Below, piece after piece: positions 20,843 through 56,749 of a DNA stretch of 64,000 nucleotides. Numbering within the stretch: the first letter of the stretch is position 1; the number at the start of each line of letters is the position of its first letter. Below the pieces are notes generated by a model. It did no database searches, was not told where the DNA came from, and worked only from the letters and a program-made list of their open reading frames with translations. The stretch is from an uncultured Bacteroidales bacterium. GTDB taxonomy: Bacteria; Bacteroidota; Bacteroidia; Bacteroidales; Bacteroidaceae. The DNA is taken from the NCBI GenBank assembly GCA_902788865.1, contig CADALZ010000006.1:6376-70375 (forward strand). Reading direction: 5' to 3'. The translations under genes and the position numbers were made by a program.

Positions 20843-20921
20843 CAAAAATAAGAAAAGAAATCAATAATCCGGAAACCATTTCGTGGCTGATGTACGAAAT
20901 GGTCTGATTATTGTATGAAAT
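20843..20921 (-). promoter_or_regulatory. LytTR-type direct-repeat promoter, copy 1
   Basis: Minus strand ATTTCATACA (20921-20912), ATTTCGTACA (20900-20891), 40 nt, TATTTTTG (20850-20843). Confidence 0.8.
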
Positions 20922-20962
20922 TGCAGAATGCCTACTAATTCATACTAAGTAGGCAGAGAGAA

Positions 20963-21511
20963 TTATTCAGGATAGTTGCCTTCGATATACGCCTTGATTA
21001 GCGAGGCATGCGAGAGAGGTTTCTTGGGATTGTTCACATCGGCATTGGTATCATAGTCCAGCAGCACCACAGGCTTATTCTTCGCTATGATCCTGACAGC
21101 TGTGACTAGCTTCTGGAGCTTATTGTCCAGCACCCACTTATAGGCTGGCAGATAGATTTCTTTCCTAGCGTCGATATACTCCAGCAGTTCCTCACCACGT
21201 ACACCCTTGCGATGACCCAAGCAAGCTCCGAACTTGCGGGAAGTACGCTTGATGTTCTTCATGTCCGTGATCTTGAACGAATGAATATCTACACCTACAT
21301 TCTCAAACACCTTCAGACCCTGCCAGATGCCCTCCACGCTTTGTGAAGTGACGCCATCTGTGAAGGGAACAGGAATACCACCATGTGGATAAAAAGGACT
21401 GAACTTGACGAACTCATCATCGGCATGACTGGTCACGTCAATGATCATAGCACCAGGATACTCCTTTTCCAGAGTTTCCATTTTCTTTTTCTTAGATTCT
21501 ACAATAATCAT
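20963..21511 (-). CDS. DUF6939 family protein (NADAR-like motif)
   Basis: IIDVTS, FSPFYPHGGIPVPF, SVEGIWQGLKVFE, PLSHASLIK. Confidence 0.75.
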   Translation of the reverse strand: MIIVESKKKKMETLEKEYPGAMIIDVTSHADDEFVKFSPFYPHGGIPVPFTDGVTSQSVEGIWQGLKVFENVGVDIHSFKITDMKNIKRTSRKFGACLGHRKGVRGEELLEYIDARKEIYLPAYKWVLDNKLQKLVTAVRIIAKNKPVVLLDYDTNADVNNPKKPLSHASLIKAYIEGNYPE

Positions 21512-21700
21512 CACAGGCTTTGGATTTTCGTTACGAACAAAGTTAGATAAATTCTCAGACATTTTAAAATCACTTACCTTAATTTTAACTATCATAAACC
21601 TCCATTTTTTTTAATTTTACCCAATGGCGGGCATATATGATTGCCAAAAAAGTGCCAAATAGTACCACCCCTAAATCAAAAAAATTTTATTTTTAACATT

Positions 21701-21774
21701 TGCGTAAAATTTACGCAGTCTTTTTTGGAAGTTCGGAATTAATCCTCTACCTTTGTTGCGTCAGAATAACGCAA
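21701..21774 (+). promoter_or_regulatory. Promoter with two candidate NrtR operators
   Basis: TGCGT-N7-ACGCA at 21701-21717 and TTGCGT-N7-ACGCAA at 21756-21774 flanking -7 box TACCTTTG (21748-21755). Confidence 0.7.
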
Positions 21775-21792
21775 TAATTAAAATAAGAGGTA

Positions 21793-22431
21793 ATGGGAAG
21801 AAAAATCATTGTTAAAGGTTTTGAAGAAGGAGATAAGTTGTCTTTTGAGGAAGAAAAAAGAGAACTTGTCAAAGTTCGTAAGAGATTATTTAATAAGGTG
21901 GTAGATGGTGAGAGAGATAGGACGTTGATGGCCTTGGTAAGTAAGTTTCAGACTCTGAGGTATGAAGATCTGGAAGAAGTGTATAATGATGGCTGTTTGG
22001 TGTTGTGGGATAAGTTCATGGATGAAGAGTTTGAGTTGATAGAGAAGAGTATTGTATGGTATTTGTGGAAGATATGTGATAATATAGGGAACCATTATCT
22101 GAGAAAGGTGAATGATAATATAGAGAGCCTGGATGTGATTTTGGAGAGGGATAGTGAGAGGGTATATGATGATGCTGATGGTTTGGTGAGAGTGTTTGAT
22201 GTGTTTGATGAAGAGATAGATGATGAAGCGAAGTTGAGCAGGCTAGATGAGATTTGGGAGCAGTTGAGTAATATAGATAAGATGATCTTGGAGAGTTATT
22301 ATGTAGAAAAATGTAAGTTGGAAGAGATTGCTAAGAGGGTAGGATATAAGAACGCCAATACGGTGAAGAGTAAGAAAGATAAGGTGTTGAAGCGAATGTT
22401 GAAGATGATGAAGGAAAAAGAAAAAGAATAA
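21793..22431 (+). CDS. ECF-type sigma-70 family factor (divergent)
   Basis: Region-2-like EDLEEVYNDGCLVLWDK; region-4-like LEEIAKRVGYKNANTVKSKK. Confidence 0.75.
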   Translation: MGRKIIVKGFEEGDKLSFEEEKRELVKVRKRLFNKVVDGERDRTLMALVSKFQTLRYEDLEEVYNDGCLVLWDKFMDEEFELIEKSIVWYLWKICDNIGNHYLRKVNDNIESLDVILERDSERVYDDADGLVRVFDVFDEEIDDEAKLSRLDEIWEQLSNIDKMILESYYVEKCKLEEIAKRVGYKNANTVKSKKDKVLKRMLKMMKEKEKE

Positions 22432-22436
22432 AAATT

Positions 22437-23129: not shown

Positions 23130-23220
23130 AAAAATTGGAGATTAGTTGGTGACCTTTTCACCATAAGTGGTAATAATAAACGGGAACGAAACAATCATTA
23201 AGGACCAAAAATGATTATCT

Positions 23221-23619
23221 ATGGATAACTTACAACGATTTCTGACAGCACAAGATGGCAAGACCATCCATGGAAACACGCTCTATGAGCAAGCTCTGAT
23301 AGAAATTCAGGAAGGATCACTTGGATTTGAATGTTGGATGAGGTATGTATATCCTCAGTTAAAAATGTCAGGGACTAGTAAACTGACTGAGTTTTATGGC
23401 CTTAATGGAAGGGAAGAAGCAGAGCAGTATATAAATCATCCTTTTCTCAAAGAAAGATTGATTAAGGCTACTCAAATTCTATTGGACATAGACAAGCCAA
23501 TCTATGAAATCTTCAGCCATCTCGGTATCTTAAAGATCCGTTCCTGCATGAAACTATTTGCCTCTGTTTCTGACGAGCCAATCTTCAAAAAAGTGCTGGC
23601 AAAATATGGATGGAAGTGA
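23221..23619 (+). CDS. DUF1810 family protein, diverged second copy
   Basis: LQRFLTAQ, YVYPQL, KIRSCMKLF; paralogous to 19114-19527. Confidence 0.85.
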   Translation: MDNLQRFLTAQDGKTIHGNTLYEQALIEIQEGSLGFECWMRYVYPQLKMSGTSKLTEFYGLNGREEAEQYINHPFLKERLIKATQILLDIDKPIYEIFSHLGILKIRSCMKLFASVSDEPIFKKVLAKYGWK

Positions 23620-23642
23620 AATATATATAATAACAATAATGT

Positions 23643-35774: not shown

Positions 35775-35853
35775 ATTTCATACACCGAAACCAACATTTC
35801 ATACATTTTTCATAGCCTGATATTTGATTTTTCAAATCAAGTTTTTATCTTTG
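35775..35853 (+). promoter_or_regulatory. LytTR-type direct-repeat promoter, copy 2 (srf operon)
   Basis: ATTTCATACA at 35775 and 35796, 40 nt, TATCTTTG 35846-35853; -33 TTTG at 35823-35826. Confidence 0.82.
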
Positions 35854-35859
35854 TGGTGT

Positions 35860-36188
35860 CCTCACGCTGGTACTTCTTCTTAGGTGGGAGTGAAGGGTGG
35901 GACGATTACATATTGGAAAGGCGTATATCATGCGCTTTGTTCTTGGCATTCTGTAACCTAGGAAATTACATTCACAGTCATGAACATAGCAGCGATAGAC
36001 GCCCACTTGGGTATGATTTTGTTATGCCTTAACTATACCTTATATATATTAAGATATAGATTCCACTGAGGCATATACTTTCATATCAGCGTGGGGTCTT
36101 AGTTGCTCGTTCTACTGTGATGGGCAATCCTAGGGCCTCAGAATGCGTGAGCGAGCACTGGTACAGGCTCTCACGCTTTTCTTTTTTA
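35860..36188 (+). ncRNA. Long structured 5' leader with terminator (candidate attenuator/cis-regulatory RNA)
   Basis: About 200-nt rod of nested stems 35946-36146, then GCGTGA..TCACGC hairpin and T tract. Confidence 0.55.
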
Positions 36189-36218
36189 TTAATAATGTAA
36201 GGACAGATTGTTTATATT

Positions 36219-39200: not shown

Positions 39201-39251
39201 GGCGCAGATGAGCGCTACTGGCTAGACACAGGTGCATTTGAAATTCAATAA
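36219..39251 (+). CDS. srfB: SrfB family protein (Hsp70/actin-like ATPase fold)
   Basis: KWLPVPY, LLAFDT, VDIGNSRT, SSPKRYLWD, DEATCSQL, DIGAGTSDL, LLSGRPASL. Confidence 0.88.
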   Translation: MDYTLIANSGIHITTLDVEINTRERFALCFHEWYDTTDGLWILDLAQEVNTETNRYYYKKRDLFENGYLKNATGNGDIDVSALNDDGIKPLKIDEDMCAGVSGEIFKMNFTDRNNTLSAFENKWLPVPYFLKRGVTRFNFGPLNWSRFKLVPRKRKDESVKSYRVLLAFDTRTSNTSNEYEECPVFSDFNNEKKFEVCKNEYLLMDFCSPKKETEYINKYLFELVHPDLRGVGQVHSNPKLSYIATYFLLVDYIAQKELFPKITLYKDANVVVKDVDMVVDIGNSRTTALLVEDNSNFNQVNQLELIDYTSLLDDTSTKVNIYKEPFDMRLAFRKVEFGNIGIKGSKQFVYPSLVRLGKEANFLMHRASESDSVKESLSTMSSPKRYLWDGKRSKEEWKFMVLDGETTNNILDIPGISEHLQSDGRIAPNASGGQSYHYSKRSLMTLAFLEMLTQAQTQINSDKYRTDRGEKTMPRRVRRIVVTCPTAMSKLEREALVKCASDAVKLLNLFKEVDYKVDVIPSAPSFKDTESKWYYDEATCSQLVYVYGEVGYKYKGSCQEFFNLYGKTPKAGAQPELTIGSLDIGAGTSDLMISRYSYTKGDVTTITPDPLFYDSFYYAGDEMLNELIKKIMFFSQNSAFRKKMKGLNEVEYRQMLRDFFGPDHAGETISDRKRRRDFNMQYSVPLMYHFLDLVSKDSKDCVVRYTDVFDECPPNERVKDGFYKFFGFSVEDLEWSYNVSEVADVISRAFEPLLKKIATIMYAYNCDIVLLSGRPASLSPIRDIFLKYYSVSPNRLILLNNYYVGHWYPFGNNTGYIANAKTIVAMGALVGYYASSLSVLDRFIIDKSKLDTNLKSVINYIEASREGQPIEYFITPEKNVGELMVSSLPTTLNVRQIGFDSYPARKLYVIDFNQYRMADRIRNKAISEGNPISDAQVLAKVKDMVDDLRLRMPFRLTIERDVEDKEKLSITSITDRNGNDLADKMIEINIQSLGADERYWLDTGAFEIQ

Positions 39252-42076: not shown

Positions 42077-44947
42077 ATGCCAGGAGCTATTTTTTATAAT
42101 AAGAAACTGCTGGGACAAATTGACGAAACAGACTTTGTAGACCAGCAAGGTATTGGGAACGACCCTCTTTACAATCGTTTCAAGAGTGTAGAGGCCGTTG
42201 TCAAGGAACATATAGCACCACAGTATCAGTCTTTCCTTTCTTGCCCTTATTATGAGGATGGAGATATTTATTGGTATGGTGATGCATGGAATGAGAAACC
42301 ACGCATTTTATCCGAGCTTTCAGGTTCGGATAAGGATAAATATGATAGAATAAAATCAGAAACAGTCGATCACTACCAAAAAGTTTTGGCTGGTTTAAAT
42401 GGATTGGAATTTCAAATGATGTTCGGTGCGTTAATCCATATCAGTGATGATTTTATTTATTGCTATGACGACAAGGTTGTTATGGTAGCTTGGGGTATGC
42501 GTCCTGATCCTTATAAACATGATATTAAAGGCTCTTTCTTTAAACAAGCGACCTATTTTGATAAAAAGAAAATAACTTTTGACGTTGGAGAATATGGAAC
42601 TATAGATACTTCAAAGTCAGAGCGTTACCAACCTTGTATTAATAGGGAAGAGGGCGACCGCTTAAGTGCAGTCGACATTCCGGTTATTAAGGCAAAAGAC
42701 GGATATGAGTTTGTTGGTTGGGAACCTGAGCCTATTGGTTTTGAGGTATCTGACGATTTTGTCTTCAAGGCAAAATACAACAAATTACCTGCTCCTGAAC
42801 AAACGGAAGAAACTGTATGGGTAACATTCCAATCTGGTGAAGGTGGCACTCTTGAAGGTGAAACTTCAATTGACGTTATTAAAGGTTCCACTCTTGAGGA
42901 ATTTGACATTCCCATCCCCATTGCCTCCGATGGTTTCCGCTTCTGTCGATGGACTCCAACTATAAATTTGCCGGTAAACCAAGATACTACTTTTACGGCA
43001 GAGTTTGAGTCCAATGTCGCACACTGCATATTTGATGCTGGTGAGCATGGAACTATACAGGGTACTGCTGATATAGTAAAGCCTCTTGGGAGCTCTATTG
43101 ATAATAGTGAGATTCCGAAAGTCACCCCACATAAAGGATATAAGTTTATAGGGTGGAACTTATCTCCATTGGCACCCCTCACAGCAGACAGAGTTTGTGT
43201 TGCGCAGTATGAAGTAAAATTACCTTGGTATAAGAGATGGTGGATATGGCTGACAGGTTTGTTTGCAGGTAAAGGATGCCTAAAATGGCTATTATGGTTG
43301 ATATTTATCATATTATTGATTTATCTTCTGTCCTGGCTACTTGGAAGTTGTGTTGGTTGTACTGGACACAGTGCAGTAAATGGCATTGTTCCAATTGACA
43401 CGATAGAGGGAAGTGATGGTAACTATGTTGAAGATAATGGCCATGCTCACCCGATTACTGATGGCACAGGCGCATTACCTGGCACCGACAGAGTTGTTGC
43501 TCCTGCTATGGGAGAAGGTGGTGTACTGCCACCTGTCGTTGAACAACCTGGGTTGCCTAATATTATGGCAAATCGTTTGTTCTTATTCATGGAGAATGAA
43601 AACGATGATGTAGAGGCATTGGCTAAAGATTTCAAACAAGCATACCCTGGTGATCAATATAGTATAATTGGTTATGATAAGGAAGTTAAACTTCTTGTTA
43701 TTCAGATACCAGAAGCCGAAAGAGAGCAAATTCGCCAAACCATTAACAGTAAGATACCGAATCATAAGTTTATAGTTTTTGATGAAGAGGTATACGAGAT
43801 TAGAGGTAGTATTAGTCAGTCTGCAGAAGACCTTGGTTGGCATCTTGATGCAATTCATTTGAAACAAGGATGGACCATAACGCAAGGTTCTCCTAGTGTT
43901 AAGATTGCTATTATTGATGATGGTATTCAAGCCGATCATCCGATGTTCAAAGGACGAATTGTTGATGCATATAACGTGTTCACTCAAAACAACACATTGA
44001 GTCTTGGCGAAGGTCATGGAACCCATATAGCAGGCTTAGCTGCAGGTTCTGCAGATTTTTACGATAAAGGAGCTGCAGGTGTTGCTCCGAATTGTTTATT
44101 AATGCCGATACAAGTTTTCGACAATAAGATGTGTCCACTTTCTGCCATAATTGCAGGCGTGATGTATGCGGTACACCATGACGCAGATGTGGTTAACATG
44201 TCTATTGGTCCATCTTTCCCTGGTCTAAATGTATTACCTGTAGAACAACAAGGAGAAATTGCTCAGACTCAATTTCACAATGTTGCAGCACTTTGGACCA
44301 GAGTCTGTAAACTTGCTGCAAAGAAGAATACAATCCTTGTTTTTGCTGCAGGAAATGATGACATTCTTACAAGTATTCCACCTGAAAATCGAAATGAATC
44401 GTCAATTGTAGTGACTTCTGTTGATAAGCGTATGTATCCAACTGTTTTTACGAATTATGGTCCATGTTCAGATGTTTCAGCTCCAGGAAAAAACATCTAC
44501 AGTTCATTTCCTAACAATAGTTTTCAGTCTTGTGATGGGACTAGCATGTCTGCTCCGATAGTTACTGGTACTATTGCATTAATGAAATCCATAAGAAAGA
44601 ACATAACGGTTGCTCAAGCTCGTGATGTGTTGTTCAGTACAGGTGCCGATGTATATGGTTGGATTCCTCCTATGGTCCTTGTTGACAAGGCGCTTGACGC
44701 AACCCAAAAAGGCAATTTTGAACGTATAGAACGCGAAAGCCGTTCTGTCCCTGATGGCGTGGATGTTCATTTGCATTCTGGAAGCGTACCTGTTGAAGGT
44801 GATAGAATGATTGAGATAACTGCACCTATAATAAATCCAGTTCCAAACCCACAACAAGGTGAAGGGACTGATTATGATGCTATTCGTCGTAAAATCGCAG
44901 AGTACAAAAAGAAAATTGAAGAACTGGAAAGTTTACTTCCGAAATAA
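42077..44947 (+). CDS. SrfA-like N-domain + InlB B-repeat-like domains + TM + S8 subtilase
   Basis: FIYCYDDKVVMVAWG; three GY.F.GW-type repeats; TM near residues 385-425; triad IIDDG, HGTH, GTSMSAP and AAGN. Confidence 0.88.
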   Translation: MPGAIFYNKKLLGQIDETDFVDQQGIGNDPLYNRFKSVEAVVKEHIAPQYQSFLSCPYYEDGDIYWYGDAWNEKPRILSELSGSDKDKYDRIKSETVDHYQKVLAGLNGLEFQMMFGALIHISDDFIYCYDDKVVMVAWGMRPDPYKHDIKGSFFKQATYFDKKKITFDVGEYGTIDTSKSERYQPCINREEGDRLSAVDIPVIKAKDGYEFVGWEPEPIGFEVSDDFVFKAKYNKLPAPEQTEETVWVTFQSGEGGTLEGETSIDVIKGSTLEEFDIPIPIASDGFRFCRWTPTINLPVNQDTTFTAEFESNVAHCIFDAGEHGTIQGTADIVKPLGSSIDNSEIPKVTPHKGYKFIGWNLSPLAPLTADRVCVAQYEVKLPWYKRWWIWLTGLFAGKGCLKWLLWLIFIILLIYLLSWLLGSCVGCTGHSAVNGIVPIDTIEGSDGNYVEDNGHAHPITDGTGALPGTDRVVAPAMGEGGVLPPVVEQPGLPNIMANRLFLFMENENDDVEALAKDFKQAYPGDQYSIIGYDKEVKLLVIQIPEAEREQIRQTINSKIPNHKFIVFDEEVYEIRGSISQSAEDLGWHLDAIHLKQGWTITQGSPSVKIAIIDDGIQADHPMFKGRIVDAYNVFTQNNTLSLGEGHGTHIAGLAAGSADFYDKGAAGVAPNCLLMPIQVFDNKMCPLSAIIAGVMYAVHHDADVVNMSIGPSFPGLNVLPVEQQGEIAQTQFHNVAALWTRVCKLAAKKNTILVFAAGNDDILTSIPPENRNESSIVVTSVDKRMYPTVFTNYGPCSDVSAPGKNIYSSFPNNSFQSCDGTSMSAPIVTGTIALMKSIRKNITVAQARDVLFSTGADVYGWIPPMVLVDKALDATQKGNFERIERESRSVPDGVDVHLHSGSVPVEGDRMIEITAPIINPVPNPQQGEGTDYDAIRRKIAEYKKKIEELESLLPK

Positions 44948-44958: not shown

Positions 44959-46008
44959 ATGAATGAAAAGTTGCGTTTTTCATGGGGGCATATCTTAGCT
45001 TTTTTGGCTTTGATCTTTATAGCCTACGTGACATTTATGGGGATTACCTATCTTATGTTAGGTAATTTCTTGTATGCAGGCATAGGGGCTTTGCTTTGTG
45101 TTTTTATGTTGGCTTTATGTTTGTTAGGGGCTCAAGTAAAAAAAGGGTCTTCGACAAAGTTCTATAAGTCAATAATATGGGAACGCATCCTTCTGTTAAT
45201 GTCCCCCGTGGTGTTAGTCCTTGCTTTTTATCCTTACAATCATTTTTGGTCTGTGCTAGATCAGGAGGACGAAATTGTCAAAGATTTTAGTTCTTCTATT
45301 TCACATGCGCATGGCATTTTTGATGAATATGAATCTTACACTAAAAAGCGAATAGATACTCTTTCGGATAGAATCTCTAATTTATCATTTGAACAGCAAC
45401 AGAATAGAATTAATGAATTAAAATTAGTATTATTATCCTCAAACTATGACAAGTTAAAATCAGAAGCCAATTCTTGGATTGACAACGCATCCCAAAGTTC
45501 TACCGTTTGGAATGTATTTCTTTTGGGGAATGTTGATGTTATTGCTGAAGCTGTAGAAAAATGGGCAAAAGATTTATCTTTAGTTTCTTCTAAGCATCTT
45601 ACATGTGAAAATTATGGTGTAATAGATTTTAGTTCAGAATGTGTCGCCAAGCAGAATGCAATCCAAGGTCTTAAGGTTCTAAAAGAGAAGTATTCTAATA
45701 CAGAATTCAAGTTCAATTTATTGTCAATAATAACAATGGTAATTTGTTTCTTGCTACTGCTTTGCCCATATTTCATTCAAGAACGAAATGCTGCCAACTG
45801 TGAGAGATTTTGGGATTTTTGGATATTTTCCAGATTCTTTAATTCAAGCAACGATGAAGGTTCAAATTTAAATCCTGAGCTTGAACCGATACCCGTTCAG
45901 AATAAAAGACCTTTAGGTAAGGGTAGCCCAGAACCATTCGACAATGAAACCGAAGAAATAAATAAACCGATTCATAAACCAAAAACGAGCAAAGGAGCTC
46001 CAGTATAA
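44959..46008 (+). CDS. Multi-pass membrane protein
   Basis: Three N-terminal and one later hydrophobic segment; 11-nt gap from upstream gene. Confidence 0.8.
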   Translation: MNEKLRFSWGHILAFLALIFIAYVTFMGITYLMLGNFLYAGIGALLCVFMLALCLLGAQVKKGSSTKFYKSIIWERILLLMSPVVLVLAFYPYNHFWSVLDQEDEIVKDFSSSISHAHGIFDEYESYTKKRIDTLSDRISNLSFEQQQNRINELKLVLLSSNYDKLKSEANSWIDNASQSSTVWNVFLLGNVDVIAEAVEKWAKDLSLVSSKHLTCENYGVIDFSSECVAKQNAIQGLKVLKEKYSNTEFKFNLLSIITMVICFLLLLCPYFIQERNAANCERFWDFWIFSRFFNSSNDEGSNLNPELEPIPVQNKRPLGKGSPEPFDNETEEINKPIHKPKTSKGAPV

Positions 46009-46010
46009 TT

Positions 46011-47636
46011 ATGCACGATAGTATTATAGATAATTTAGATCAATACACAGCCGATCAACTTGCTAATTACATTAGGCAAGGTGTTGTTACACTTGAAGAA
46101 TTACGCAAGGAAGGATTAGATGTTAACATACGTCATGAGATTGAGGACCTTCTCGAAAACAATCCAGACGAAGAAGACTGGCAACACGCTTGTGACTTGA
46201 ATACAATAGAAGCTTATCAAGATTATCTTGACAAGTATCCTGAAGGAGAACATCGTTCTGATGCAAGACACAAACTTCAATCTCTTCAAGCTGCTCAAAC
46301 TACCCAAAAAAAAGAAGAAGATGATGGTGAGGTGTATTCACGTATTGATAAGAATGACATTAAAGCTTTGGAAGAATTTATTAAAAATAATCCAAAGAAT
46401 AAATATCGTTTTGAGGCCCGAAAGCTAATAAATAGATTGGCAACCCGAAACAGGTTATCTGGTGTAGAACTTATTCAACGTATTATCCAGCAATTTGACC
46501 CTGACGAAATATCAGAGAAAATAGAAGAGCTGATTTCTAGTCAAGAAGCATCAGAAGATGATTTAATAAAAGTCTTCCAGAATGACCATAATATTTTACC
46601 TGCAGATGTTGTCTGTGAGCTAGATCGTGTTCTTGATTTTCGCGCATTGCCAAATATAGGCATTGATGATGCTTTTATTGCACAGTTAGAGGAAATAGCA
46701 TCTTTCTCACGTCCCGAAGAAAAGGAGAGAAAATTAAAGTCCCCACTGAGTGATATAGATTATGAAAAGATTCCTCCATTAAAAAGTATTCCTGATGGAT
46801 TTACTGAGATTTACTTTTGGGGTGTGCCTGCATCAGGTAAGACTTGTGCGGTTGGATCAATTATGTCAACAATGACAAATGGACGTGGCGTTAAGTCTGT
46901 AATGCCTTTTACGGATAGTCAGGGGTCTTCTTATATGATGCCTTTGGCATCCTCTTTTAGAGAGGATAAGGTATGTATTTTACCCCCTAGAACTAAAGTA
47001 GAAGAAACTTTCGAAATGAGGTATCAAATTACAGACGATGATAATAAAGAACATGGTTTAGCTTTTATTGATTTGTCAGGAGAGTTATTTGAATGTATGC
47101 ATCTAAGTAGGGCTCAGGGAAAAGAAAACCTTACACCTAAGCAACAAAAAGCTTTAACAGTTCTTGAAGATATACTCGTAAATAATCGTTCTAAAAATCC
47201 CAAAATTCATTTTTTTGTGATAGAATATGGAAGTGAAAATAATAGATATAAGGGACTTTCTCAGAATGAACTTCTATTAAGTTGCCTTAATTACCTAGAT
47301 GATAAATCCATCCTTAAGGACAATACTATTGGTGCATACTTAATAATTACTAAAGCAGATAAGGCTGGTGATGCTGACATAGGTAAATATATTGATAAAC
47401 ACTATAGTGGATTCTATAGTGGATTGACTCAGCGTATGACAAAATGGGGTATCAATACGAGAAAGGGAAGATCTCAAGTTAAGAGATTTCCATTTTCTAT
47501 CGGAGATGTATGTTTCCAGAAATGGTGTTTATATGATTCAGAATGGACGCAATACATAATTGAAGAGATTAAAACACGTTCATATGGCATGGAAACTGGT
47601 TTTATTGGTAAATTTAAATCCGTTGCAAGAAAATGA
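46011..47636 (+). CDS. TRAFAC-class GTPase-domain protein with N-terminal helical repeats
   Basis: G1 GVPASGKT, G3 DLSGE, G4 ITKAD; repeat EAYQDYLDKYPEGEHRSDA. Confidence 0.82.
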   Translation: MHDSIIDNLDQYTADQLANYIRQGVVTLEELRKEGLDVNIRHEIEDLLENNPDEEDWQHACDLNTIEAYQDYLDKYPEGEHRSDARHKLQSLQAAQTTQKKEEDDGEVYSRIDKNDIKALEEFIKNNPKNKYRFEARKLINRLATRNRLSGVELIQRIIQQFDPDEISEKIEELISSQEASEDDLIKVFQNDHNILPADVVCELDRVLDFRALPNIGIDDAFIAQLEEIASFSRPEEKERKLKSPLSDIDYEKIPPLKSIPDGFTEIYFWGVPASGKTCAVGSIMSTMTNGRGVKSVMPFTDSQGSSYMMPLASSFREDKVCILPPRTKVEETFEMRYQITDDDNKEHGLAFIDLSGELFECMHLSRAQGKENLTPKQQKALTVLEDILVNNRSKNPKIHFFVIEYGSENNRYKGLSQNELLLSCLNYLDDKSILKDNTIGAYLIITKADKAGDADIGKYIDKHYSGFYSGLTQRMTKWGINTRKGRSQVKRFPFSIGDVCFQKWCLYDSEWTQYIIEEIKTRSYGMETGFIGKFKSVARK

Positions 47637-49531
47637 TAACAGAAGCAAAAATAGGAATTGGCATTGTTCATTGCCAATCAAAAGGTTCGACCGTCATAGG
47701 TTATAATAAAGTGTATACATCAGACTATGGAAAATGGTCTTCCATAATTGACGATACTGGTAATGTTTTTAATTACGTAAAGATTGACCATGATACTATT
47801 TTGAGAATGATTCATTTCTCGAAAGATGGTGATGGCTGGTATATGTGTTCTATGAAACCCATCTCTGGAAGAGATGAAGAATATAGAGCATCATGGGTCT
47901 ATTTCCCATCTTCATTAGATCTTTCACAAAAGGATATTAAGGCTGTAATTGAAGTTGCTGAAAGTCAAATTAAACAAAAAGAATTTGATACTAATGAGCT
48001 TCAAAATGTAATTCAATCATATACAAAAATCATAGAAGATAGTCCATTATATGAAGTACCTACTGAGCAACGTGGTTTTGCATTTAGAGATACGAGTAGT
48101 GGCAATTATAATCTGTACGATTTGTATGCCTATATGTATCAGAAGGAGTTTACGAAATATGAATGGGTCTTTTTAATGGATAAGTCTCAATTATCTTTCA
48201 AGGGAAATAGTGTTGATGATATTTCAAATAGAAAGATTCTTGAATCATATATTATCAAACCGGCAACTAATGAATTTGGTTTTATTCCATATCTTAATGG
48301 CGTTGAATTCCGTTCTCCAGTTCGTATCATGGAAGGAGAATCACTTTCTATAGAATTTAAGAAAGAAGGTTATGTAGATATTCCTAAAACAATCAAAACA
48401 CAAAGTGATTTTTCTATTTCTATAAATGATTGCAAAAAGTATTTTAAAGAAAGTCAGTTTGTGGCAAAAGATTCAAAAAATAATAAAAGGATTATTGCTA
48501 TCATCAAGCCATTAAATGCTACTGAAGATAAAATTGAGAAGCGTTGGATCTTTAATGAGGCAGAGCTGAAAACTGTTAAATTAAATGTAATGGCAGAAGG
48601 TTATATTGCAGATAGTTTTGAACTTGATCTTCATGATAAATCTTTGAATGATGAAATTTCTTTGCCTTTAGAACCAGAAGATCATAAATATTTGTTCGTT
48701 TTGCCATTGGACAGGTCTGTTGTTAAAGATAGTGCTTCTATAGAGGTTAGTATTCATTCTCAGTTTAAAATCAACGGTTCTCCGTTTGAAGGTTATAAAT
48801 GCTCTGGAACACCTCGTGAAGGTGGCACTCCTAATATGCTTACCGCCGTGAAACCTTTGCCTGGTACGTCTCCATCAAACAGTAATGGGGTTAGCCATAC
48901 AGAATACAATGGAAAAAAGAAAAAACACTTTGAGGACCGAGATAAACCGACAAATCTTCCAATAGGCCCTACTTTTGATGATTCCGAGATAGAAGAGTAT
49001 AATCCTATATGGAAATATGTAAAACTTGCCGTGATGGGCATTGTTGCATTAGCATTGGCAGCAATTGTGGGTTATTTCGTATATGATAAATTCTTTAGGT
49101 TACCTGCGCCGGATGATGTTTCTGCTGACGGAGATGTTATTATTGATGATTCTGAGGGCGGTGGTTTGCCTAAAGATAAATGGGATGCTGCCTATAATTA
49201 TCTGATTAATAATGATAATCAAATTTATAAAAAAGATATGGAGCATTTCGATGACCTTAAAGGCCTTTTTGAAATACTTAATAAATATGACTTTAAGACA
49301 TTTGTTGAATCTATTGATAAACACCCTCATGGTGAAAGCATTCTTTCTATTAAGGTGTGGAAACGTCTTTACGATAAAGCTAAAGAAATTGGTTTTAATA
49401 AGAAAGGAATATATGACGATTTAGAAGAACCATCAATAACGTTTGATCGTTTTATTGATAACGACTTTTCGAAGATGGAGAATGAGGGGGATATTATAGA
49501 TGGACAAACTAATTTTGAAGGGCAGCAATAA
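47633..49531 (+). CDS. Single-pass membrane hypothetical protein
   Basis: 632-aa ORF, ATGA overlap with GTPase gene, TM LAVMGIVALALAAIVGYFVY. Confidence 0.8.
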   Translation: MITEAKIGIGIVHCQSKGSTVIGYNKVYTSDYGKWSSIIDDTGNVFNYVKIDHDTILRMIHFSKDGDGWYMCSMKPISGRDEEYRASWVYFPSSLDLSQKDIKAVIEVAESQIKQKEFDTNELQNVIQSYTKIIEDSPLYEVPTEQRGFAFRDTSSGNYNLYDLYAYMYQKEFTKYEWVFLMDKSQLSFKGNSVDDISNRKILESYIIKPATNEFGFIPYLNGVEFRSPVRIMEGESLSIEFKKEGYVDIPKTIKTQSDFSISINDCKKYFKESQFVAKDSKNNKRIIAIIKPLNATEDKIEKRWIFNEAELKTVKLNVMAEGYIADSFELDLHDKSLNDEISLPLEPEDHKYLFVLPLDRSVVKDSASIEVSIHSQFKINGSPFEGYKCSGTPREGGTPNMLTAVKPLPGTSPSNSNGVSHTEYNGKKKKHFEDRDKPTNLPIGPTFDDSEIEEYNPIWKYVKLAVMGIVALALAAIVGYFVYDKFFRLPAPDDVSADGDVIIDDSEGGGLPKDKWDAAYNYLINNDNQIYKKDMEHFDDLKGLFEILNKYDFKTFVESIDKHPHGESILSIKVWKRLYDKAKEIGFNKKGIYDDLEEPSITFDRFIDNDFSKMENEGDIIDGQTNFEGQQ

Positions 49532-49594
49532 TATTTCTCAACAGGATGGGTATAATTTAGATGATTAACTAGATAATCTTCAAGACGATATTAT

Positions 49595-50500
49595 ATGATG
49601 AAAAATGTAGTTTCAAAAATCTTTATTTTGGCAGTTGCAGTTGCAGGTGCCATTGGAAGTGTCCTTTTTTTTATCAAATATGTAGTGAATCCGCCAGAAG
49701 ATATCTCTGCTATAGCTACAGTTGAGGAGGTTTTTAATCCTTGCATTAAAAATACAGTTGCTTCATTCAATCCAGATTCCCATAATTTAAAAGAAGCTGA
49801 GGTTTTATATGATGCACTTGTTGACCTTGTAAACATCTTTAATGAGGATGGGCTCATTATAGATAAAAATATTTACAACGATGCAATCGAAGAGTCCTCA
49901 GATAAGTTCGCTAGGTATTTTACAAGTTGGTCTTCTGATGAATTTAAGAAATCTATTTGGAATACTGGAAACCACGATGTAATGCTTAGACTTATTTCAA
50001 AACTACGAAATGTTAGCATAAATGACGGATCTATGAAAGCATTATCTTCTGGTGCACTTTCGTCACTAACAGAAATTGAATCCATAATAAAAGGTTATAG
50101 GGAAGCGATGAGTGTCGTTAATAGTGCCTCCCGATGTACAAGTGTCAGTGAGATTAAAACTATTGTGGAAAAGGCCAACAAATATAAGCATGAACCATAT
50201 ACAAATAATACCAGATTGATTAATGCATTAAATAGGGTGGGAGATGATGCTAAAGAAGCTGTTGTCTCTTATATTGTAAGAACGGGTTCCAATGTTGTCT
50301 ATAACCGAAGGTCATATAAAGATTATACAGAATGGACCAGTTATTATTATAATGTTGAAAAACTTATTGAAGAATTTAGGAATGCTGGATATGGCTATCC
50401 TACAGATTTATCATATATCCATAATTCGTTGATTGAAGCAGATAAGGAAATGCTAGCTTTTTATTCCGAGCGAGAAAGAATTCGGGGTAGGAGTCATTGA
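49595..50500 (+). CDS. Membrane-anchored helical hypothetical protein
   Basis: 301-aa ORF with N-terminal TM. Confidence 0.75.
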   Translation: MMKNVVSKIFILAVAVAGAIGSVLFFIKYVVNPPEDISAIATVEEVFNPCIKNTVASFNPDSHNLKEAEVLYDALVDLVNIFNEDGLIIDKNIYNDAIEESSDKFARYFTSWSSDEFKKSIWNTGNHDVMLRLISKLRNVSINDGSMKALSSGALSSLTEIESIIKGYREAMSVVNSASRCTSVSEIKTIVEKANKYKHEPYTNNTRLINALNRVGDDAKEAVVSYIVRTGSNVVYNRRSYKDYTEWTSYYYNVEKLIEEFRNAGYGYPTDLSYIHNSLIEADKEMLAFYSERERIRGRSH

Positions 50501-50583
50501 ATGGGTTGTTTTTTTTATTGTTTTTGTTTATATTATTCACTATAATGCTACCTTTTGAAGGGATATACTAAGAAGGAGGAAGA

Positions 50584-52122
50584 ATGATGAAAAAATTTTT
50601 TTTGTTTACATTTCTGTTATTAGAGGCTTTCTTCGCTAGTTCTTATTTGTCTGCAAGGAATGAGGCTGCTTGGACTATCAATCAAGTTATTGATCGAAGG
50701 GTTGAGATTCTTTCAAATTTACGACAAGCTAAATATTATATAGAACAGAAAGACTATGTAAGTGCAAAATCTAAACTTGATCGTGTTCTTCAATTGGATT
50801 CTTCAAATGAAGAGGCTAAGGAGTTGTTAAGCCAATGTAATGCAAGAATTGCGGAAGCCCAGAGAGCTGAAAAGAATGCTTACGATGTGGCATGTAGAAA
50901 TGGCTCTGTCAAAGCCTTGCAGGATTTTATTTAAAAGTATCCCAATAGCACATATAAGGAAGAAGCCTTGAACCGAATCTCAGACTTTGGACTGTGGGAA
51001 AAGGCTAGAGCAGCAAATACTATAGATTCATATCAAAAGTATCTGGCAGAATCTTCAAATAAAAGTTTTCAAAAAGAAGCTAATGAGCAAATAGTTAAGA
51101 TAAATGCTATGTCTGAATGGGATAGTATAATAGATACAAATTCTATCCCTCTTCTGAAGGAGTATATTACAAAATACCCATCGTCTCCATATATTAATTC
51201 TGCACAATATCGGTACCATGTCTTAACTGCAGAGTCGTATTATGAAAGCAAGAATGATGTGATAGCTTTACAATGGTACAATGCAGCCGAGGATTATGCT
51301 CCGTTGTCTGGTATTTATAAGGCACATTATAATGAATTAAATGAAAAGAGTGAATTTGAAAAGATTAAAAAGAGTGCAGATATTGAGACAGTTAGAGCAT
51401 ATTTAAATGGACTTTCTGGGGATAGCCCATATTATACAGAGGTATCTAATTATTTAGCTTTACTTCTTGGTGCCCAATTAAGTATATGGTCATCTGAGTA
51501 TGACATGAATCAGGCATTGTTCTATGCAAAGGATAAGGCAACAGAAACTAAAGTTAAAGCCTATGTAGATGAAGCTAAAAGATTGCAAAGATTAAGGAAT
51601 GCTAGTATTAGGAGAACCAACGGTCTAACGCGCTTTACCTTTGGGTGGAACCTATTCCATGCGGATTACTTTGACTCTATATTGTCTTTTGGGTCAGGTA
51701 TTAGATTCAGAATTGGCAGTTGGGATGATACTTTGAATCTCATTTTTGGAGCCGAATACTCATATATTGCATACTGGGATATTGATGATGATTATTATTG
51801 GAGAGATTCTTCTTTCTTCTCAATAGGGCATGTAATAGATGTTCCGGTAGGCCTGCGTTTGAATTTTGCGAATACAGGGGCTAAAAGTAAGTTTTATATC
51901 GGTTGTAATGCAATCCTGGGTTATCAGGTAGGCGAAGCAAATGATTATAAAGGTGACCTTAGGTCATCTTCAATAGCAATTGAACCACAAATTGGTATTG
52001 CTGGTCGGTATATGGATTTTGGCATTTATTATAGGAAATATTTCAATGGGAAGAGTATTTTTTATAATAAGCTAAATTATTCTGATCAGAAAATTGGATT
52101 ATTTTTAACGTGGTATATGTAA
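50584..52122 (+). pseudogene. Exported TPR/helical-repeat protein with C-terminal beta-barrel-like domain, split by in-frame TAA
   Basis: ORFs 50584-50934 and 50968-52122 share a frame; read-through gives LQDFI*KYPNSTYKEEALNRI, completing a repeat unit. Confidence 0.8.
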
Positions 52123-52128
52123 ATAATT

Positions 52129-52536
52129 ATGGAAAACAACAATCACACTCAGCAGAAGCCTACTCTTTCTATGAGTCAGGCAGTTTCAAATGTGTTTGAT
52201 AAGTACGCAACCTTTAGTGGTAGAGCCAGGCGATCAGAATATTGGTGGTATTGGCTTTTCTATTTGATTGTGCTATTCATGGCAGTTTTTTTTGATAACT
52301 TCTTTGGTATTACATTCGACTACTTAACTTATGGACCTATTTATGTGCTCGCGGCATTGGGGTTGATTCTGCCAACATGGGCTGTGGCGGTGAGACGGCT
52401 TCATGACATAAACAAGAGTGGTTGGAATCTGTTATGGAGTTTAGTTCCTATCATTGGAGCTATCTTATTGCTTATCTGGGCTTGTACAGATTCTGACAGA
52501 ACAACCAATGAGTATGGAGAATCACCAAAGTATTAA
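52129..52536 (+). CDS. DUF805 (YhaH-like) membrane protein
   Basis: KYATFSGRARRSEYWW, VRRLHDINKSGW, NEYG. Confidence 0.92.
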   Translation: MENNNHTQQKPTLSMSQAVSNVFDKYATFSGRARRSEYWWYWLFYLIVLFMAVFFDNFFGITFDYLTYGPIYVLAALGLILPTWAVAVRRLHDINKSGWNLLWSLVPIIGAILLLIWACTDSDRTTNEYGESPKY

Positions 52537-52614: not shown

Positions 52615-52692
52615 ATTTCATACTTAAATCTGGGCATTTCATACATTGGGGGTGAAATGCTTTGGTCATGAGTAGCCGATGGATTAACTTTG
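52615..52692 (+). promoter_or_regulatory. LytTR-type direct-repeat promoter, copy 3
   Basis: ATTTCATACT at 52615, ATTTCATACA at 52636, 39 nt, TAACTTTG 52685-52692. Confidence 0.78.
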
Positions 52693-52734: not shown

Positions 52735-54786
52735 ATGAAAAAGAGTTTTATTCTTTTAGCGTTATTGTTGTTTTGCGTAGTGGGAATGCTGAATGCCCAG
52801 AAAGTAAAGCGTCCAGACACTTATAATTATAGCAGAGGTGTGGAGGCTGCAGATAATAATGAAGATGAAGAGGCTCTGGAATACTTTAACAAGGAATTGC
52901 AGGATAATCCTAAAAATGGTTATGCCTTTGCTTGGATAGCCTTGCTGAGATATGATAACGAAGAGTATGGACGTGCCTTGACTGCCGTGGAGAATGCCTT
53001 GAAATACCTGCCTAAGAAGGATGGGGATTATATGGCTATTGCTTATGGAACCAGAGCACGCATATATCATATGCTGGATGAGGAAGAAAAGGCGATAGAG
53101 GATATGACCACTTCGATATCTTATAGGGATGATGACCCTGACTTATACAAGGAGAGAGCTGAACTCTATTACTATATGGGGGAATATGCACTGTCTGACA
53201 AGGATTTTGAGAAGATTAAATCTATGGACTCTGGCTCAACACTAGGGTATATGGGGGTAGGCAGAAATGCCAATGCTCAAGGAAGGTATGAGGATGCCCT
53301 CAAGGAATTTGATTATGCCTTAAAGTTGGCACCTACTTATGGACAGGGATATGCATTCAGGGCTGAGAGTCTTCTGGGGTTGAAAAGGTATGCTGAGGCT
53401 ATGGATGATGTGATTGCTGCCTTGAACAACGAGGAAACTAATGAAAAGGCGTATCGCCTTATCGGGGAAATTGCCAAGGAAGCGCAAGAGGTGGCTATAG
53501 CAAAGCTAAGAGTACAGGCTGTAAAAGAGAAGGCCAATATCCTGTGGCCCTATGCAATCGGTGATATTTATAGAAATGACAATCAGTATGAAAGGGCAAT
53601 AGATTATTATAAGCAGTCGAATGAAATCAGCCCTATAGACCAAGCTTGCTATTACATAGCAATGGCATACAAAGAGCTGGGTGATTATCAAAATGCACTG
53701 GCATATATTGACGAGGCTCTTGAAATGGATCCAAGTGATGGAAATTACATGACGCTTAAGGCTGATATCTTCTATAATAATGGACAGAACGAGGAGGCTA
53801 TCAGGGCTGTGGGGGATTTTATAGATGCTTATCCAGATCATTACTTTGGCTACTATCAGCGTGGCTGGTATCGTGATATGAGTGGGGATAGCAAAGGGGC
53901 ACTAGAGGATTATGACATGAGCATTGCCCTAGAACCGTCTAATGCTTTTACCTATATCTGTAGAGGAAGACTTAATGTACAGCAGGGAAATCAAGAGAAA
54001 GCTAAGAATGATCTGGAAAAGGCTATAGAGCTTGACTCTATCCCAAACTCTAATTGCGCTGCTGCATTCGGTTATCTGTATTTAGGGCAGAATGATAAGG
54101 CCATAGACTGGCTGAACAGGGCGTTGGAGGCTGATGACGGAGATGGCACTTACTACAATGCTGCATGCATCTATTCTATCATGGGTGAAACGGATAAAGC
54201 CATAGAGAATCTGAGAAAGGCTTTTGAGAAAGGACATCGGAGCCTGAGTCATATAGAGAATGATAAGGATCTGGACAATATTCGCAACTTACCAGCCTTC
54301 AAGGCTTTGAGAGAGGAATATCGACAGAAACATGAGAGTGAAAAAGATAGCAACACAGATAGTCCTGTGTTATTTGAGGAGCGTGTGGCAGAGATTCCTT
54401 TTACTAAAGAAGGTGGTGTCTATAAGGTAAAATGTGAAATCAACGATTTGCCCCTGTACTTCATATTTGATACAGGAGCAAGTGATGTGACAATGTCAAC
54501 CGTAGAGGCTACTTTCATGCTGAAGAATAGCTATCTGTCTTCAAAGGATGTCATAGGAAAGCAAAACTATATGACAGCCAATGGAGAAATCAGTGAGGGG
54601 ACAGTAATCAACTTGAAGAATGTGAACTTTGGCGGACTGGACTTAAAGGACGTGAGGGCTTCTGTGGTGAAGAGCCAGGTGGCTCCATTGTTGCTTGGCC
54701 AGTCTGTACTTAATAGATTGGGCAAGATAGAGATCGACTATGGCCGATCCGTCTTGAAAGTGACGTATAAAGAAAAGGTAAAATGA
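52735..54786 (+). CDS. Exported TPR protein with C-terminal retropepsin-like aspartyl protease
   Basis: Signal peptide, many TPRs, FIFDTGASDV, PLLLGQSVL. Confidence 0.9.
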   Translation: MKKSFILLALLLFCVVGMLNAQKVKRPDTYNYSRGVEAADNNEDEEALEYFNKELQDNPKNGYAFAWIALLRYDNEEYGRALTAVENALKYLPKKDGDYMAIAYGTRARIYHMLDEEEKAIEDMTTSISYRDDDPDLYKERAELYYYMGEYALSDKDFEKIKSMDSGSTLGYMGVGRNANAQGRYEDALKEFDYALKLAPTYGQGYAFRAESLLGLKRYAEAMDDVIAALNNEETNEKAYRLIGEIAKEAQEVAIAKLRVQAVKEKANILWPYAIGDIYRNDNQYERAIDYYKQSNEISPIDQACYYIAMAYKELGDYQNALAYIDEALEMDPSDGNYMTLKADIFYNNGQNEEAIRAVGDFIDAYPDHYFGYYQRGWYRDMSGDSKGALEDYDMSIALEPSNAFTYICRGRLNVQQGNQEKAKNDLEKAIELDSIPNSNCAAAFGYLYLGQNDKAIDWLNRALEADDGDGTYYNAACIYSIMGETDKAIENLRKAFEKGHRSLSHIENDKDLDNIRNLPAFKALREEYRQKHESEKDSNTDSPVLFEERVAEIPFTKEGGVYKVKCEINDLPLYFIFDTGASDVTMSTVEATFMLKNSYLSSKDVIGKQNYMTANGEISEGTVINLKNVNFGGLDLKDVRASVVKSQVAPLLLGQSVLNRLGKIEIDYGRSVLKVTYKEKVK

Positions 54787-54838
54787 AACGATAAGCAATG
54801 ATTATTTTCCAAGAAGCAATCAATTAAGAACAATTAAT

Positions 54839-55888
54839 ATGAATAGAAAGAGAATGTCTATTGATAGTTTGCTTTCGTTTTCAACTAATTACATAGTTGA
54901 AGAACTACAAAAAGCAAATATGACGATTATAAAAACGGATTCTGGAGAGCCGCAAGTTTGGTTTAAGGATGAACATGGCGAAAAGCAGTATGTTATTATA
55001 CATACTGTATGTGCTAATATACCAAATTCAACAGACTTCAATTTTGATGTGTCATTAATGAAGAGTTTGTATCCATCCAAAGGTTATTATGCAAAGGTTG
55101 GTTTGTTCTCTGGAGATGCTATTATGTATGATGAAGAGGGAGAAATTATTCCATTGGGTGAAAGAGATGATATTAACAATCCTAAGGATATTATTTTCGA
55201 GGATACAGAAATCTATGTTATATGTGACGGATTTCATCCTGTAGAATATCCTCGTTCTATAAAAGAGGATAAGATGAAATCACAGTCCCCAATAGTAATT
55301 ATCGCCCACTCTGTGCTTGATGGTACGATGGGCATAGAAGATGTGTGGGAGAAATATGCAGATGAGATACGTTCTACCACAGAAGTGAATAGTTATGATG
55401 AGACAATGTCATTGTCTTCTCTTTACTATCGTCAGGGAGTTTATCTGTCGAATGCTGGTTACATCAAAGATTCTCTACCATATTTTAATGGGGCTTTATA
55501 TTATCTGGAACAAGGGAAGTCTTTTGTCCCAGAAAAGCAATATGAAGATTTCAAAGAAGCTATCTTGTACCAAAGAGTACAGGTGGCTTATAAGTCGGAA
55601 GATTATACTGCTGCCATAAAGGATCTGAAAATTCTTATTAACAAGTATCCAGGCAAGGATGAGTATAGACAAGCCTATATAGGTTGTCTTGGGGCATATC
55701 TGATGAAGAAGACAAATCCAATTTATATAGTTCTTGCACTTATCGTATTATTAAAGATTGCAGAGAATTTTATTTTCAATACAGATTTCATTCCAATATG
55801 GCTAGTAAACATAGCATGGATATTGTGGCTGGTGATAGCAATAGCTCAAATTGCACTTCCTTGGGTGTTGAAGAAATTGGTTAAATAA
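54839..55888 (+). CDS. Hypothetical protein with TPR-like helices and two C-terminal TMs
   Basis: 349-aa ORF; hydrophobic C-terminus. Confidence 0.7.
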   Translation: MNRKRMSIDSLLSFSTNYIVEELQKANMTIIKTDSGEPQVWFKDEHGEKQYVIIHTVCANIPNSTDFNFDVSLMKSLYPSKGYYAKVGLFSGDAIMYDEEGEIIPLGERDDINNPKDIIFEDTEIYVICDGFHPVEYPRSIKEDKMKSQSPIVIIAHSVLDGTMGIEDVWEKYADEIRSTTEVNSYDETMSLSSLYYRQGVYLSNAGYIKDSLPYFNGALYYLEQGKSFVPEKQYEDFKEAILYQRVQVAYKSEDYTAAIKDLKILINKYPGKDEYRQAYIGCLGAYLMKKTNPIYIVLALIVLLKIAENFIFNTDFIPIWLVNIAWILWLVIAIAQIALPWVLKKLVK

Positions 55889-55914
55889 GAGACTTAACAG
55901 GCGAGGAGTTGTAA

Positions 55915-56658
55915 ATGAGGGTGACAGGTCTTATATTGTTCTGGCTTCTATTATCACTCGTTTTTTCTTCATGCAAAAGCAATGAACCTCTGGCTGTGAA
56001 AGGGGCTAAGGGTGGCATCGTCGTAGAGCATATTGGCTACACCGTTTCTTTCAACTCTGACACGAGGAATCCAAACTGGGTGGCTTATGAGCTGACTGCC
56101 GAAGAGGTGGATGGAACGGTGAAACGGGATAATGGGTATTATCCTGATCCTGACATCAAGGCTCCGCAGGCGGATAATAATGACTACCGAAACTCGGGTT
56201 GGGATAGGGGGCACATGGCTCCTGCAGGGGATATGAAGTGGAGCAAGGAGGCGATGCATGAGTCTTGCTACTTCACGAATATCTGCCCTCAGAACCGTAA
56301 CCTGAATGCTGGGGACTGGAATACGCTGGAGAATAAATGTCGCACTTGGGCGCAGCGCTATGGCAGTGTGCAAATAGTATGTGGGCCGATAATGGGGGAG
56401 ATGAAACATGGTATGCTGGGGGATAATCGTGTGGCTATCCCAGATGCTTTCTATAAGGTGCTGATGGTGAAGGTTGGTGAAGGGTATGAGGGCATTGGCT
56501 TCGTATTCGAGAATAAGGCTGGGCATCGGGCACTGAATACGTATGCGATGAGCATTGATGAGGTGGAGGCATTGACTGGCTATGATTTCTTCCACTCGCT
56601 GCCTGACAGGATAGAGCGTATAGTGGAGGCTGAGTTTCATCAGGAGGTTTGGTATTGA
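55915..56658 (+). CDS. DNA/RNA non-specific endonuclease (NucA-like) lipoprotein
   Basis: Lipobox FSSC, PNWVAY, WDRGHMAP, TNICPQ..LN.G.W..LE. Confidence 0.93.
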   Translation: MRVTGLILFWLLLSLVFSSCKSNEPLAVKGAKGGIVVEHIGYTVSFNSDTRNPNWVAYELTAEEVDGTVKRDNGYYPDPDIKAPQADNNDYRNSGWDRGHMAPAGDMKWSKEAMHESCYFTNICPQNRNLNAGDWNTLENKCRTWAQRYGSVQIVCGPIMGEMKHGMLGDNRVAIPDAFYKVLMVKVGEGYEGIGFVFENKAGHRALNTYAMSIDEVEALTGYDFFHSLPDRIERIVEAEFHQEVWY

Positions 56659-56670
56659 TAGGCTGAAGTG

Positions 56671-56749
56671 ATTTCGTACAGCCAAAGGGGTATTTCGTAC
56701 AAGAGCATGCTGAATGGTGCCGATATCTCAATGATAAGTGCTAAGTTTG
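56671..56749 (+). promoter_or_regulatory. LytTR-type direct-repeat promoter, copy 4 (autoregulatory position)
   Basis: ATTTCGTACA at 56671 and 56692, 40 nt, TAAGTTTG 56742-56749. Confidence 0.82.

Follow-up and report, generated by a model that had tools for sequence, protein, structure and literature searches.

A direct-repeat promoter element as the predicted operator of a receiver-less LytTR regulator with a peptide-bearing membrane partner in Bacteroidales

Results

The window analysed here, a stretch of 64,000 nucleotides (nt) from an uncultured Bacteroidales bacterium (contig CADALZ010000006.1), encodes a small LytTR-domain protein and carries four copies of one promoter-like unit. In each, two 10-bp direct repeats with an 11-bp spacer (10-N11-10, period 21 bp) are followed by a TAnnTTTG sequence, described as the −7 box of sigma-A promoters in Bacteroidota (PMC9723704). 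The units precede a pair of genes for small proteins, an operon containing srfB, a group of protease and nuclease genes, and lytTR itself (Table 1). All four were found where the original prediction had placed them, with the second repeat separated from the box by 40, 40, 39 and 40 nt.

Table 1. Features of the LytTR-associated loci in the window
Feature	Position	Strand	Basis or remark
176-aa exported protein	19673..20203	-	no convincing Pfam or NCBIfam match
203-aa protein, N-terminal hydrophobic segment, YbjN-like domain (lead only)	20208..20819	-	
TAnnTTTG sigma-A −7 box, 40 nt past pair 1	20843..20850	-	pattern search
Repeat pair 1 (10-N11-10)	20891..20921	-	pattern search, shuffles, weight matrix
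Repeat pair 2	35775..35805	+	pattern search, shuffles, weight matrix
−7 box, 40 nt past pair 2	35846..35853	+	pattern search
Structured leader RNA, long hairpin versus terminator-shaped hairpin (36145-36176) and U run	35855..36190	+	
SrfB	36219..39251	+	PF07520, E 7e-213
SrfC-type protein	39261..42068	+	PF10139, E 2e-98
956-aa protein in SrfA position, one membrane segment, C-terminal S8 subtilase	42077..44947	+	no SrfA model match
Operon remainder: membrane protein, weak Double-GTPase 2 match (E 0.004), two unknowns, tetratricopeptide repeat (TPR) frame and next open reading frame (ORF), DUF805	44959..52536	+	
Repeat pair 3	52615..52645	+	pattern search, shuffles, weight matrix
−7 box, 39 nt past pair 3	52685..52692	+	pattern search
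Exported TPR protein, C-terminal clan AA aspartic protease	52735..54786	+	
349-aa TPR-like protein, C-terminal hydrophobic segments	54839..55888	+	
Non-specific endonuclease, lipoprotein-type N-terminus	55915..56658	+	PF01223
Repeat pair 4, autoregulatory position	56671..56701	+	pattern search, shuffles, orthologous loci
−7 box, 40 nt past pair 4	56742..56749	+	pattern search
Receiver-less LytTR protein, 126 aa	56773..57153	+	PF04397 only
Single-pass membrane partner, outer penicillin-binding protein (PBP) transpeptidase-like domain	57150..58352	+	PF00905
Conserved cytoplasmic peptide DDELQVLG, predicted LytTR-docking strand	57156..57179	+	family consensus DDEIRIIG

These four are the only matches to the unit in the window, even with three mismatches allowed, and 100 shuffles gave a mean of 0.11 matches and a maximum of 1. 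Across the 2.69-Mb genome there are six perfect pairs at period 21, the four in the window and two on contig C15, and none at periods 18-20 or 22-24. A genome scan with a weight matrix, a check proposed along with the original prediction, used a matrix whose training excluded the host genome and its closest relative; it returned the same six sites and nothing in this genome at periods 19, 20, 22 and 23. A chance origin of the four units is ruled out by the shuffles, the genome-wide period test and the weight matrix.

On C15, the site at position 6723 has its box at 40 nt. The site at 9312, which precedes a second receiver-less lytTR gene (52% identity to the window LytTR), has it at 30 nt, a spacing one helical turn shorter that is kept in a close relative. 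Both sites fall within a segment (6723-10722) that also encodes a lipoprotein, a paralogue of the 20208-20819 product, a 185-aa protein, the receiver-less LytTR and a NAGPA-like partner; a DUF1848 gene and two WYL genes lie upstream of this cassette. Both cassette regions have a G+C content below the genome level.

PF04397 is the sole domain of the 126-aa LytTR. It lacks a receiver domain, and no kinase gene was found adjoining its own. The fold model of a relative matches the LytTR structures of AgrA and ComE, and a search of PDB sequences with the LytTR profile gave no match. Five other LytTR-domain genes were found in the host genome, in frames of 249-291 aa. Members of the short subfamily carry FIRIGKS at the position of a VirR motif that reportedly reads FxRxHrS, a replacement that may set a new DNA specificity.

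We then asked how closely the repeat follows this subfamily. There are at least 1,280 LytTR relatives, and the best 80 of 212 confirmed genomic matches were used as loci; 79 of these, many of them close kin, had sufficient DNA before lytTR. A 21-bp pair with at most three mismatches was present within 260 nt upstream of lytTR at 47 of the 79, other periods scoring 0-4, and in 42 of those 47 cases an exact box followed the pair after 39 or 40 nt. At loci outside the training set, a matrix site was found elsewhere in 25 of 33, mostly directly behind the partner gene. Genomes chosen for 50 of the 80 loci held the pair in 43 of 50 cases, and a reversed control in none of 50. In an unselected draw of 350 genomes of the order, 13 carried the subfamily at E 1e-12 or better; the pair occurred in 10 of these 13 versus 40 of the 337 non-carriers, and a perfect pair in 6 versus 2. 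Genomes without this LytTR rarely have the perfect form; a motif common in such genomes was what the original prediction had named as counting against it. Of the three carriers without a pair, two have just the sister type of LytTR, which is linked to genes for FHA and PP2C proteins; in the third, a stop interrupts the match. In an earlier draw of 100 relatives the pair appeared in six, about the control frequency, and the system is therefore accessory.

The orthologous loci, the matrix and the genome draws all support the proposal that the repeat is the predicted operator of the receiver-less LytTR and that the gene is autoregulated. We regard the first of these, a reading of sequence data, as very probably correct. 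Several observations weigh against it or limit its reach. The upstream pair is missing at 32 of the 79 lytTR genes, so autoregulation is not universal, and three of the 13 carriers have no pair at all. Genome G385 has a site, though no LytTR type besides the FHA-linked sister was detected in it. The loose pattern is commoner in non-carriers (40 of 337) than reversed-control matches are in the draw (21 of the 350 genomes), and the many closely related loci are not independent.

Some loci depart from the usual arrangement. At L049, L053, L056, L082 and L145 the repeat points away from lytTR or sits both ways between divergent genes, with one repeat pair on each strand at L145. Locus L179, the only one found on a viral contig, lies on a 103-kb member of a viral collection and has a lytTR-partner cassette and a repeat-headed lipoprotein operon. 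The sister stand-alone subfamily (L131-L134, L136, L137, L047) has an FHA gene after lytTR and no peptide partner; several of these loci also hold zinc-finger-like, PP2C and kinase-like genes, and the subfamily is a possible phosphorylation-controlled variant. Seven matches to longer LytTR fusions were read as chimeric or frameshifted frames and were not used.

Promoter geometry was examined at 141 distinct sites, of which 60 have an exact box at a distance of 39 nt, 15 at 40 nt, two at 30 nt and one each at 23, 27 and 38 nt. Matches to a TTTG-like −33 element are most frequent at 19-20 nt from the box on its upstream side, which leaves about 15-17 nt between the end of the repeat and that element, a placement that would suit an activator. 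That 63 of the 141 sites have no exact box counts against so regular a promoter.

The original prediction recognized the receiver-less LytTR but overlooked a membrane partner with a conserved peptide, the second cassette on C15, and a leader RNA described below. The lytTR and partner genes overlap by 4 nt, and the partner has one membrane segment. Its outer domain resembles a PBP transpeptidase in which STVE replaces the SxxK motif, SxN and KTG being retained; the partner at L004 keeps the SxxK lysine (STVK). This fold was found in the window, L004 and L007, and a NAGPA-like outer domain in 31 of the 42 partners scanned (of 76), mostly below the curated cut-off, as well as in the C15 cassette. 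The domains matched among those 42 were PF00905 or PF09992, with no match to DUF3021 or DUF2154. The domain search gave no match to a protease domain in the partner, and a PDB search with the partner profile produced a weak match to Slr0280 alone (E 0.006).

Whichever outer domain is present, a DDEIRIIG-type peptide lies near the start of 73 of the 76 genes downstream of lytTR; the three without it encode an FHA protein and an unrelated lipoprotein or were read in the wrong frame. A complex prediction from the window LytTR and the first 36 residues of its partner scored 0.45, versus 0.02 for the best control, with contact agreement between runs of at least 86% and a predicted local distance difference test (pLDDT) value of 51-52 for the partner. 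In calibration 116 of 157 solved pairs and 2 of 215 mismatched pairs attained the mark; those at 0.60 or under were 18 of the 157 solved pairs and both mismatched ones. The model gives weak support for contact.

Further information comes from a clade of longer LytTR proteins, of about 159 aa, that end in DD(N/D)DIRVIC. The best match to the peptide matrix falls in the last 20 residues in 120 of 120 long LytTRs (median 18.2 bits), and 120 short ones score at most 2.2 bits. No peptide-bearing gene lies directly downstream of lytTR at any of 13 long-type loci. AlphaFold2, given 73 sequences, placed a disordered linker before a tail strand at residues 153-157 (pLDDT about 70); the single-sequence fold reached a pLDDT of only 36. 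Three of the 13 loci end close behind the gene, one copy has no tail, and the fused-tail proteins form one clade that counts as one event, all of which reduce the weight of the comparison. The fusion and fold data make contact likely, and we consider it probable that the partner peptide binds LytTR. The fused-tail genes (L100:6438-6917, L167-L178) usually lie behind a gene for an Hhe-like DUF4011 helicase-nuclease in a repeat-headed operon.

The genes behind the repeat were compared within the window and elsewhere. For the first target pair the repeat and box are in place, but the first gene starts at 20819 and not at 20879, because the promoter box falls inside the longer ORF. The YbjN lead for its product comes from Atlas (0.91), with PF10722 on 22-27% of neighbouring clusters, and a 43% identical paralogue is encoded behind the lipoprotein gene of the repeat-headed C15 operon. 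The second product had been called transglutaminase-like, and its Cys, His and Asp residues are spaced much as in enzymes of that kind; the label finds no support in the hidden Markov models of Pfam or NCBIfam. TPR genes related to 52735-54786 follow the repeat in other genomes. PADLOC gave nothing telling on the window's targets, with generic subtilase and TPR matches only.

Elsewhere the repeat most often heads a gene for an unannotated lipoprotein (about 350 aa), accompanied by a partner of some 720 aa; a DUF3142-like match here (score 0.83) is a lead only. Other repeat-headed genes encode alpha-2-macroglobulin with PBP1C, MliC, NlpE/lipocalin lipoproteins, GDSL-GDSL/LysM-MBOAT operons, CreD, M23, Sel1, WG and leucine-rich repeat proteins, and TPR proteins. 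Alpha-2-macroglobulin- and lysozyme-inhibitor-type products shield the wall from proteases and lysozyme. A crude rule based on hydrophobicity classed as exported the products of 59 of 70 first genes other than lytTR, and 19 of 26 families, versus 663 of 1616 background ORFs; the set of 70 contains duplicate sites and some miscalled starts. These target kinds support the view, already taken in the original prediction, that the regulon is envelope-associated. Against it stand a minority of cytoplasmic or defence-like targets (DarT/DUF6939/ZorAB-like, Hhe-like helicase, Sir2, kinase) and the fact that the window's own targets differ from the conserved core.

Two gene clusters were noted alongside these targets. 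At L084 and L085 (contig C34 of genome G141), five repeat sites within 18 kb head a DarT/DUF6939/ZorAB-like operon and several exported-protein genes. In the window, positions 20963-28681 hold a DUF6939, sigma-region-4-like, NUDIX/NrtR, DUF1810, phospholipase D and Schlafen/AlbA cluster that is not preceded by the repeat; paralogues of several of these genes cluster on contig C32.

The second repeat does precede the srf operon, as had been claimed, but srfB starts 365 nt past the box, behind a structured leader RNA. The leader folds far better than shuffled sequences (z −7.45), and forcing the terminator-shaped hairpin costs 2.4 kcal/mol (−128.2 vs −125.8 kcal/mol). Aligned with 14 other copies, it has two-sided changes in 23 of 54 pairs. 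It has no match among the Rfam covariance models, and the leader hairpin was not among the calls of a sigma-70/terminator scan, which gave no useful information. The genome holds at least two further full copies (L152, L153) and a weak fourth on contig C22; three of 16 listed copies have a matrix score of at least 20 upstream. In a close relative this promoter and leader stand before another gene, and the search for SrfB was negative.

Of the 350 genomes of the order, 20 have SrfB, and just one of those also has this LytTR. Their 22 srfB loci, a few of them short upstream, are all without a matrix site. Among 55 LytTR carriers SrfB was found in two, in a search that had no positive control of its own, the same query having given matches among the 350 genomes. 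In both carriers the operon lies directly upstream of lytTR, with no repeat before srfB. A conserved srf regulon was rejected on these counts, and the larger claim that srf, GTPases and a nuclease define the system is not supported. The srf operon is cargo behind a promoter-plus-leader module, so its transcription would depend on activation by LytTR and also on polymerase reading through the leader.

As in the SrfABC systems of Salmonella and Xenorhabdus, SrfB and SrfC-type domains occur in order and the third gene product is membrane-anchored (bioRxiv 10.64898/2026.09.18.752743). SrfA itself is described there as having a kinase-like N-domain, a membrane helix and a lipocalin-like C-domain. 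The protein in its place here differs in ending in a subtilase and matching no SrfA model, and the operon has extra GTPase-like and TPR genes. Near its end (50584-52122) a TPR ORF and the next ORF, of 116 and 384 aa, share one frame and are split by a stop codon. Divergent from the second repeat, a BT4734-like/VapE-like gene with four paralogues in the genome (32746-34959) suggests a mobile-element context.

Discussion

We propose that the LytTR protein and its partner form an envelope alarm. Two LytTR monomers, one per repeat and both on the same face of the DNA ahead of the −33 element, would recruit sigma-A polymerase. The partner's peptide would add a beta-strand to LytTR and so tether it at the membrane, and the outer domain would sense likely cell-wall damage. 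Loss or cleavage of the partner would then free LytTR, leading to self-amplification and induction of envelope-protection operons. In the host genome, two cassettes with different outer domains and one operator would allow either signal to fire all six promoters. As a whole, this tether-and-release scheme is the account we lean towards, with appreciable room for error, and both the signal and the sign of the peptide's effect are predicted readings that temper it.

The closest parallel is the LytTR regulatory system (LRS) of Streptococcus mutans, for example HdrRM and BrsRM, in which a receiver-less LytTR gene is followed by a membrane-protein gene (PMC6193735). Here too a receiver-less LytTR has a membrane-protein gene directly downstream, and direct repeats with an 11-13 bp spacer, about 21 bp apart, stand before the operon promoter (here 10-N11-10, at the 47 loci given above). 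LRS membrane proteins inhibit their regulators, and the systems feed back positively on themselves (PMC6193735); what bears on this point here is the contact prediction and the gene fusion. How those proteins hold their regulators is not explained in the sections consulted (PMC6193735). The differences are that LRS repeats lie about 10 bp before the −35 element and these about 15-17 nt before a −33 element; that LRS partners are DUF3021/DUF2154 proteins lacking any enzyme-like domain, unlike the single-pass partner here with its large enzyme-fold outer domain and docking peptide; and that the repeat sequence is another one and the targets are envelope-defence genes. The system works like an LRS but departs from it in partner family and in repeat-to-promoter distance. 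Two Bacteroides pairs described as LRS-like (Btheta7330_RS19920/19915, Bovatus_RS21370/21375) share the TATCTTTG promoter box and have direct repeats spaced by 11 bp (PMC6193735). Their LytTR is membrane-embedded, with an NfeD/DUF2154 gene upstream, and their TCCGGTATTCA-type repeat ends 34 nt before the box (PMC6193735), whereas here LytTR is soluble, the partner lies downstream and the repeat is different. DanRI of uropathogenic E. coli likewise joins a 122-aa LytTR-only regulator to a co-encoded inhibitor, but DanI is a predicted zinc-finger protein and no autoregulation is reported (bioRxiv 10.1101/2025.06.10.658900).

AgrA and ComE differ in having a receiver domain and a cognate kinase; here there is no receiver, and no kinase gene adjoins lytTR. 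In pairs of extracytoplasmic function (ECF) sigma factors with single-pass anti-sigma factors, and in BlaR1-type sensors, a cytoplasmic tether is joined through one membrane span to a swappable outer sensor, which can have a PBP fold. In BlaR1 and MecR1 the sensor has a PBP fold, retains SxxK and is joined to a zinc protease in the membrane. In this system, by contrast, a LytTR activator predicted to work with sigma-A is the output, the partner gave no protease-domain match, and the PF00905 domain reads STVE in the window's partner and STVK in that of L004. LRS and ECF sigma/anti-sigma systems have also been compared by others (PMC6193735). A literature search of largely open-access main texts returned papers on other systems only; S3 Table of PMC6193735 could list members of the family described here.

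The alternative that comes closest keeps the operator and the peptide contact and reverses the sign: a cleaved partner would release its N-terminal peptide to activate LytTR, and fused-tail LytTRs would be constitutively active. FecR-type systems, in which pro-sigma fragments act as such a switch, offer a precedent. The fusion and fold data, which bear on contact and not on sign, fit it, and fused-tail genes do lie inside repeat-headed operons (L100, L172). However, with a constitutively active member inside the positive loop that it drives, the regulon would be permanently switched on, and those LRS membrane proteins that have been characterised, like DanI, are inhibitors. Inhibition is favoured by analogy because of the LRS and DanRI precedents, and we consider release of an activating peptide unlikely. 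A stronger departure, with LytTR acting as a repressor at the repeat, or with the partner being no more than an envelope enzyme under shared regulation whose peptide serves some other client, could appeal to the enzyme folds of the outer domains, to the SxxK of L004 and to the many Parabacteroides and Bacteroides loci at which the repeat does not precede lytTR. It is quite improbable given that the site precedes the −33 element at a face-of-helix distance, and that the peptide is kept across outer-domain swaps and fused to LytTR in one clade.

The original prediction made LytTR a dedicated activator of a conflict system built of srf genes, GTPases, proteases and a nuclease. The repeat before srfB in the window, the srf genes that immediately precede lytTR in two other genomes and the resemblance of some targets elsewhere to anti-phage genes all speak for it. 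Yet the repeat precedes srfB at none of the other srfB loci and in neither linked genome, 53 of the 55 LytTR carriers have no detectable SrfB, and the close relative has another gene behind the same promoter and leader; we give this idea slightly less credence still. Least probable is that a different regulator reads the repeat: the genome's five longer LytTR-domain proteins provide candidates, but the repeat tracks the short subfamily across Bacteroidales families and sits before its genes.

The family may represent a third LytTR signalling architecture, although we put this forward tentatively and would not yet bet on it. An anti-sigma-like single-pass sensor would hold LytTR by an eight-residue strand, with interchangeable sensors, in what may be a general Bacteroidales alarm for cell-wall breach. 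Its cargo would vary by lineage (lysozyme and protease shields, srf, anti-phage genes) and would sometimes be double-locked by a two-state leader, and the peptide-fused LytTR would carry a built-in brake. The LytTR-partner family provides an eight-residue contact that can be tested, a precisely defined operator and two sensor swaps that occur naturally, and has members in records of cultured species of Dysgonomonas, Parabacteroides and Alistipes. For gut and rumen Bacteroidales, it defines a candidate envelope-damage regulon that would place alpha-2-macroglobulin, lysozyme inhibitors and acyltransferase operons under one switch.

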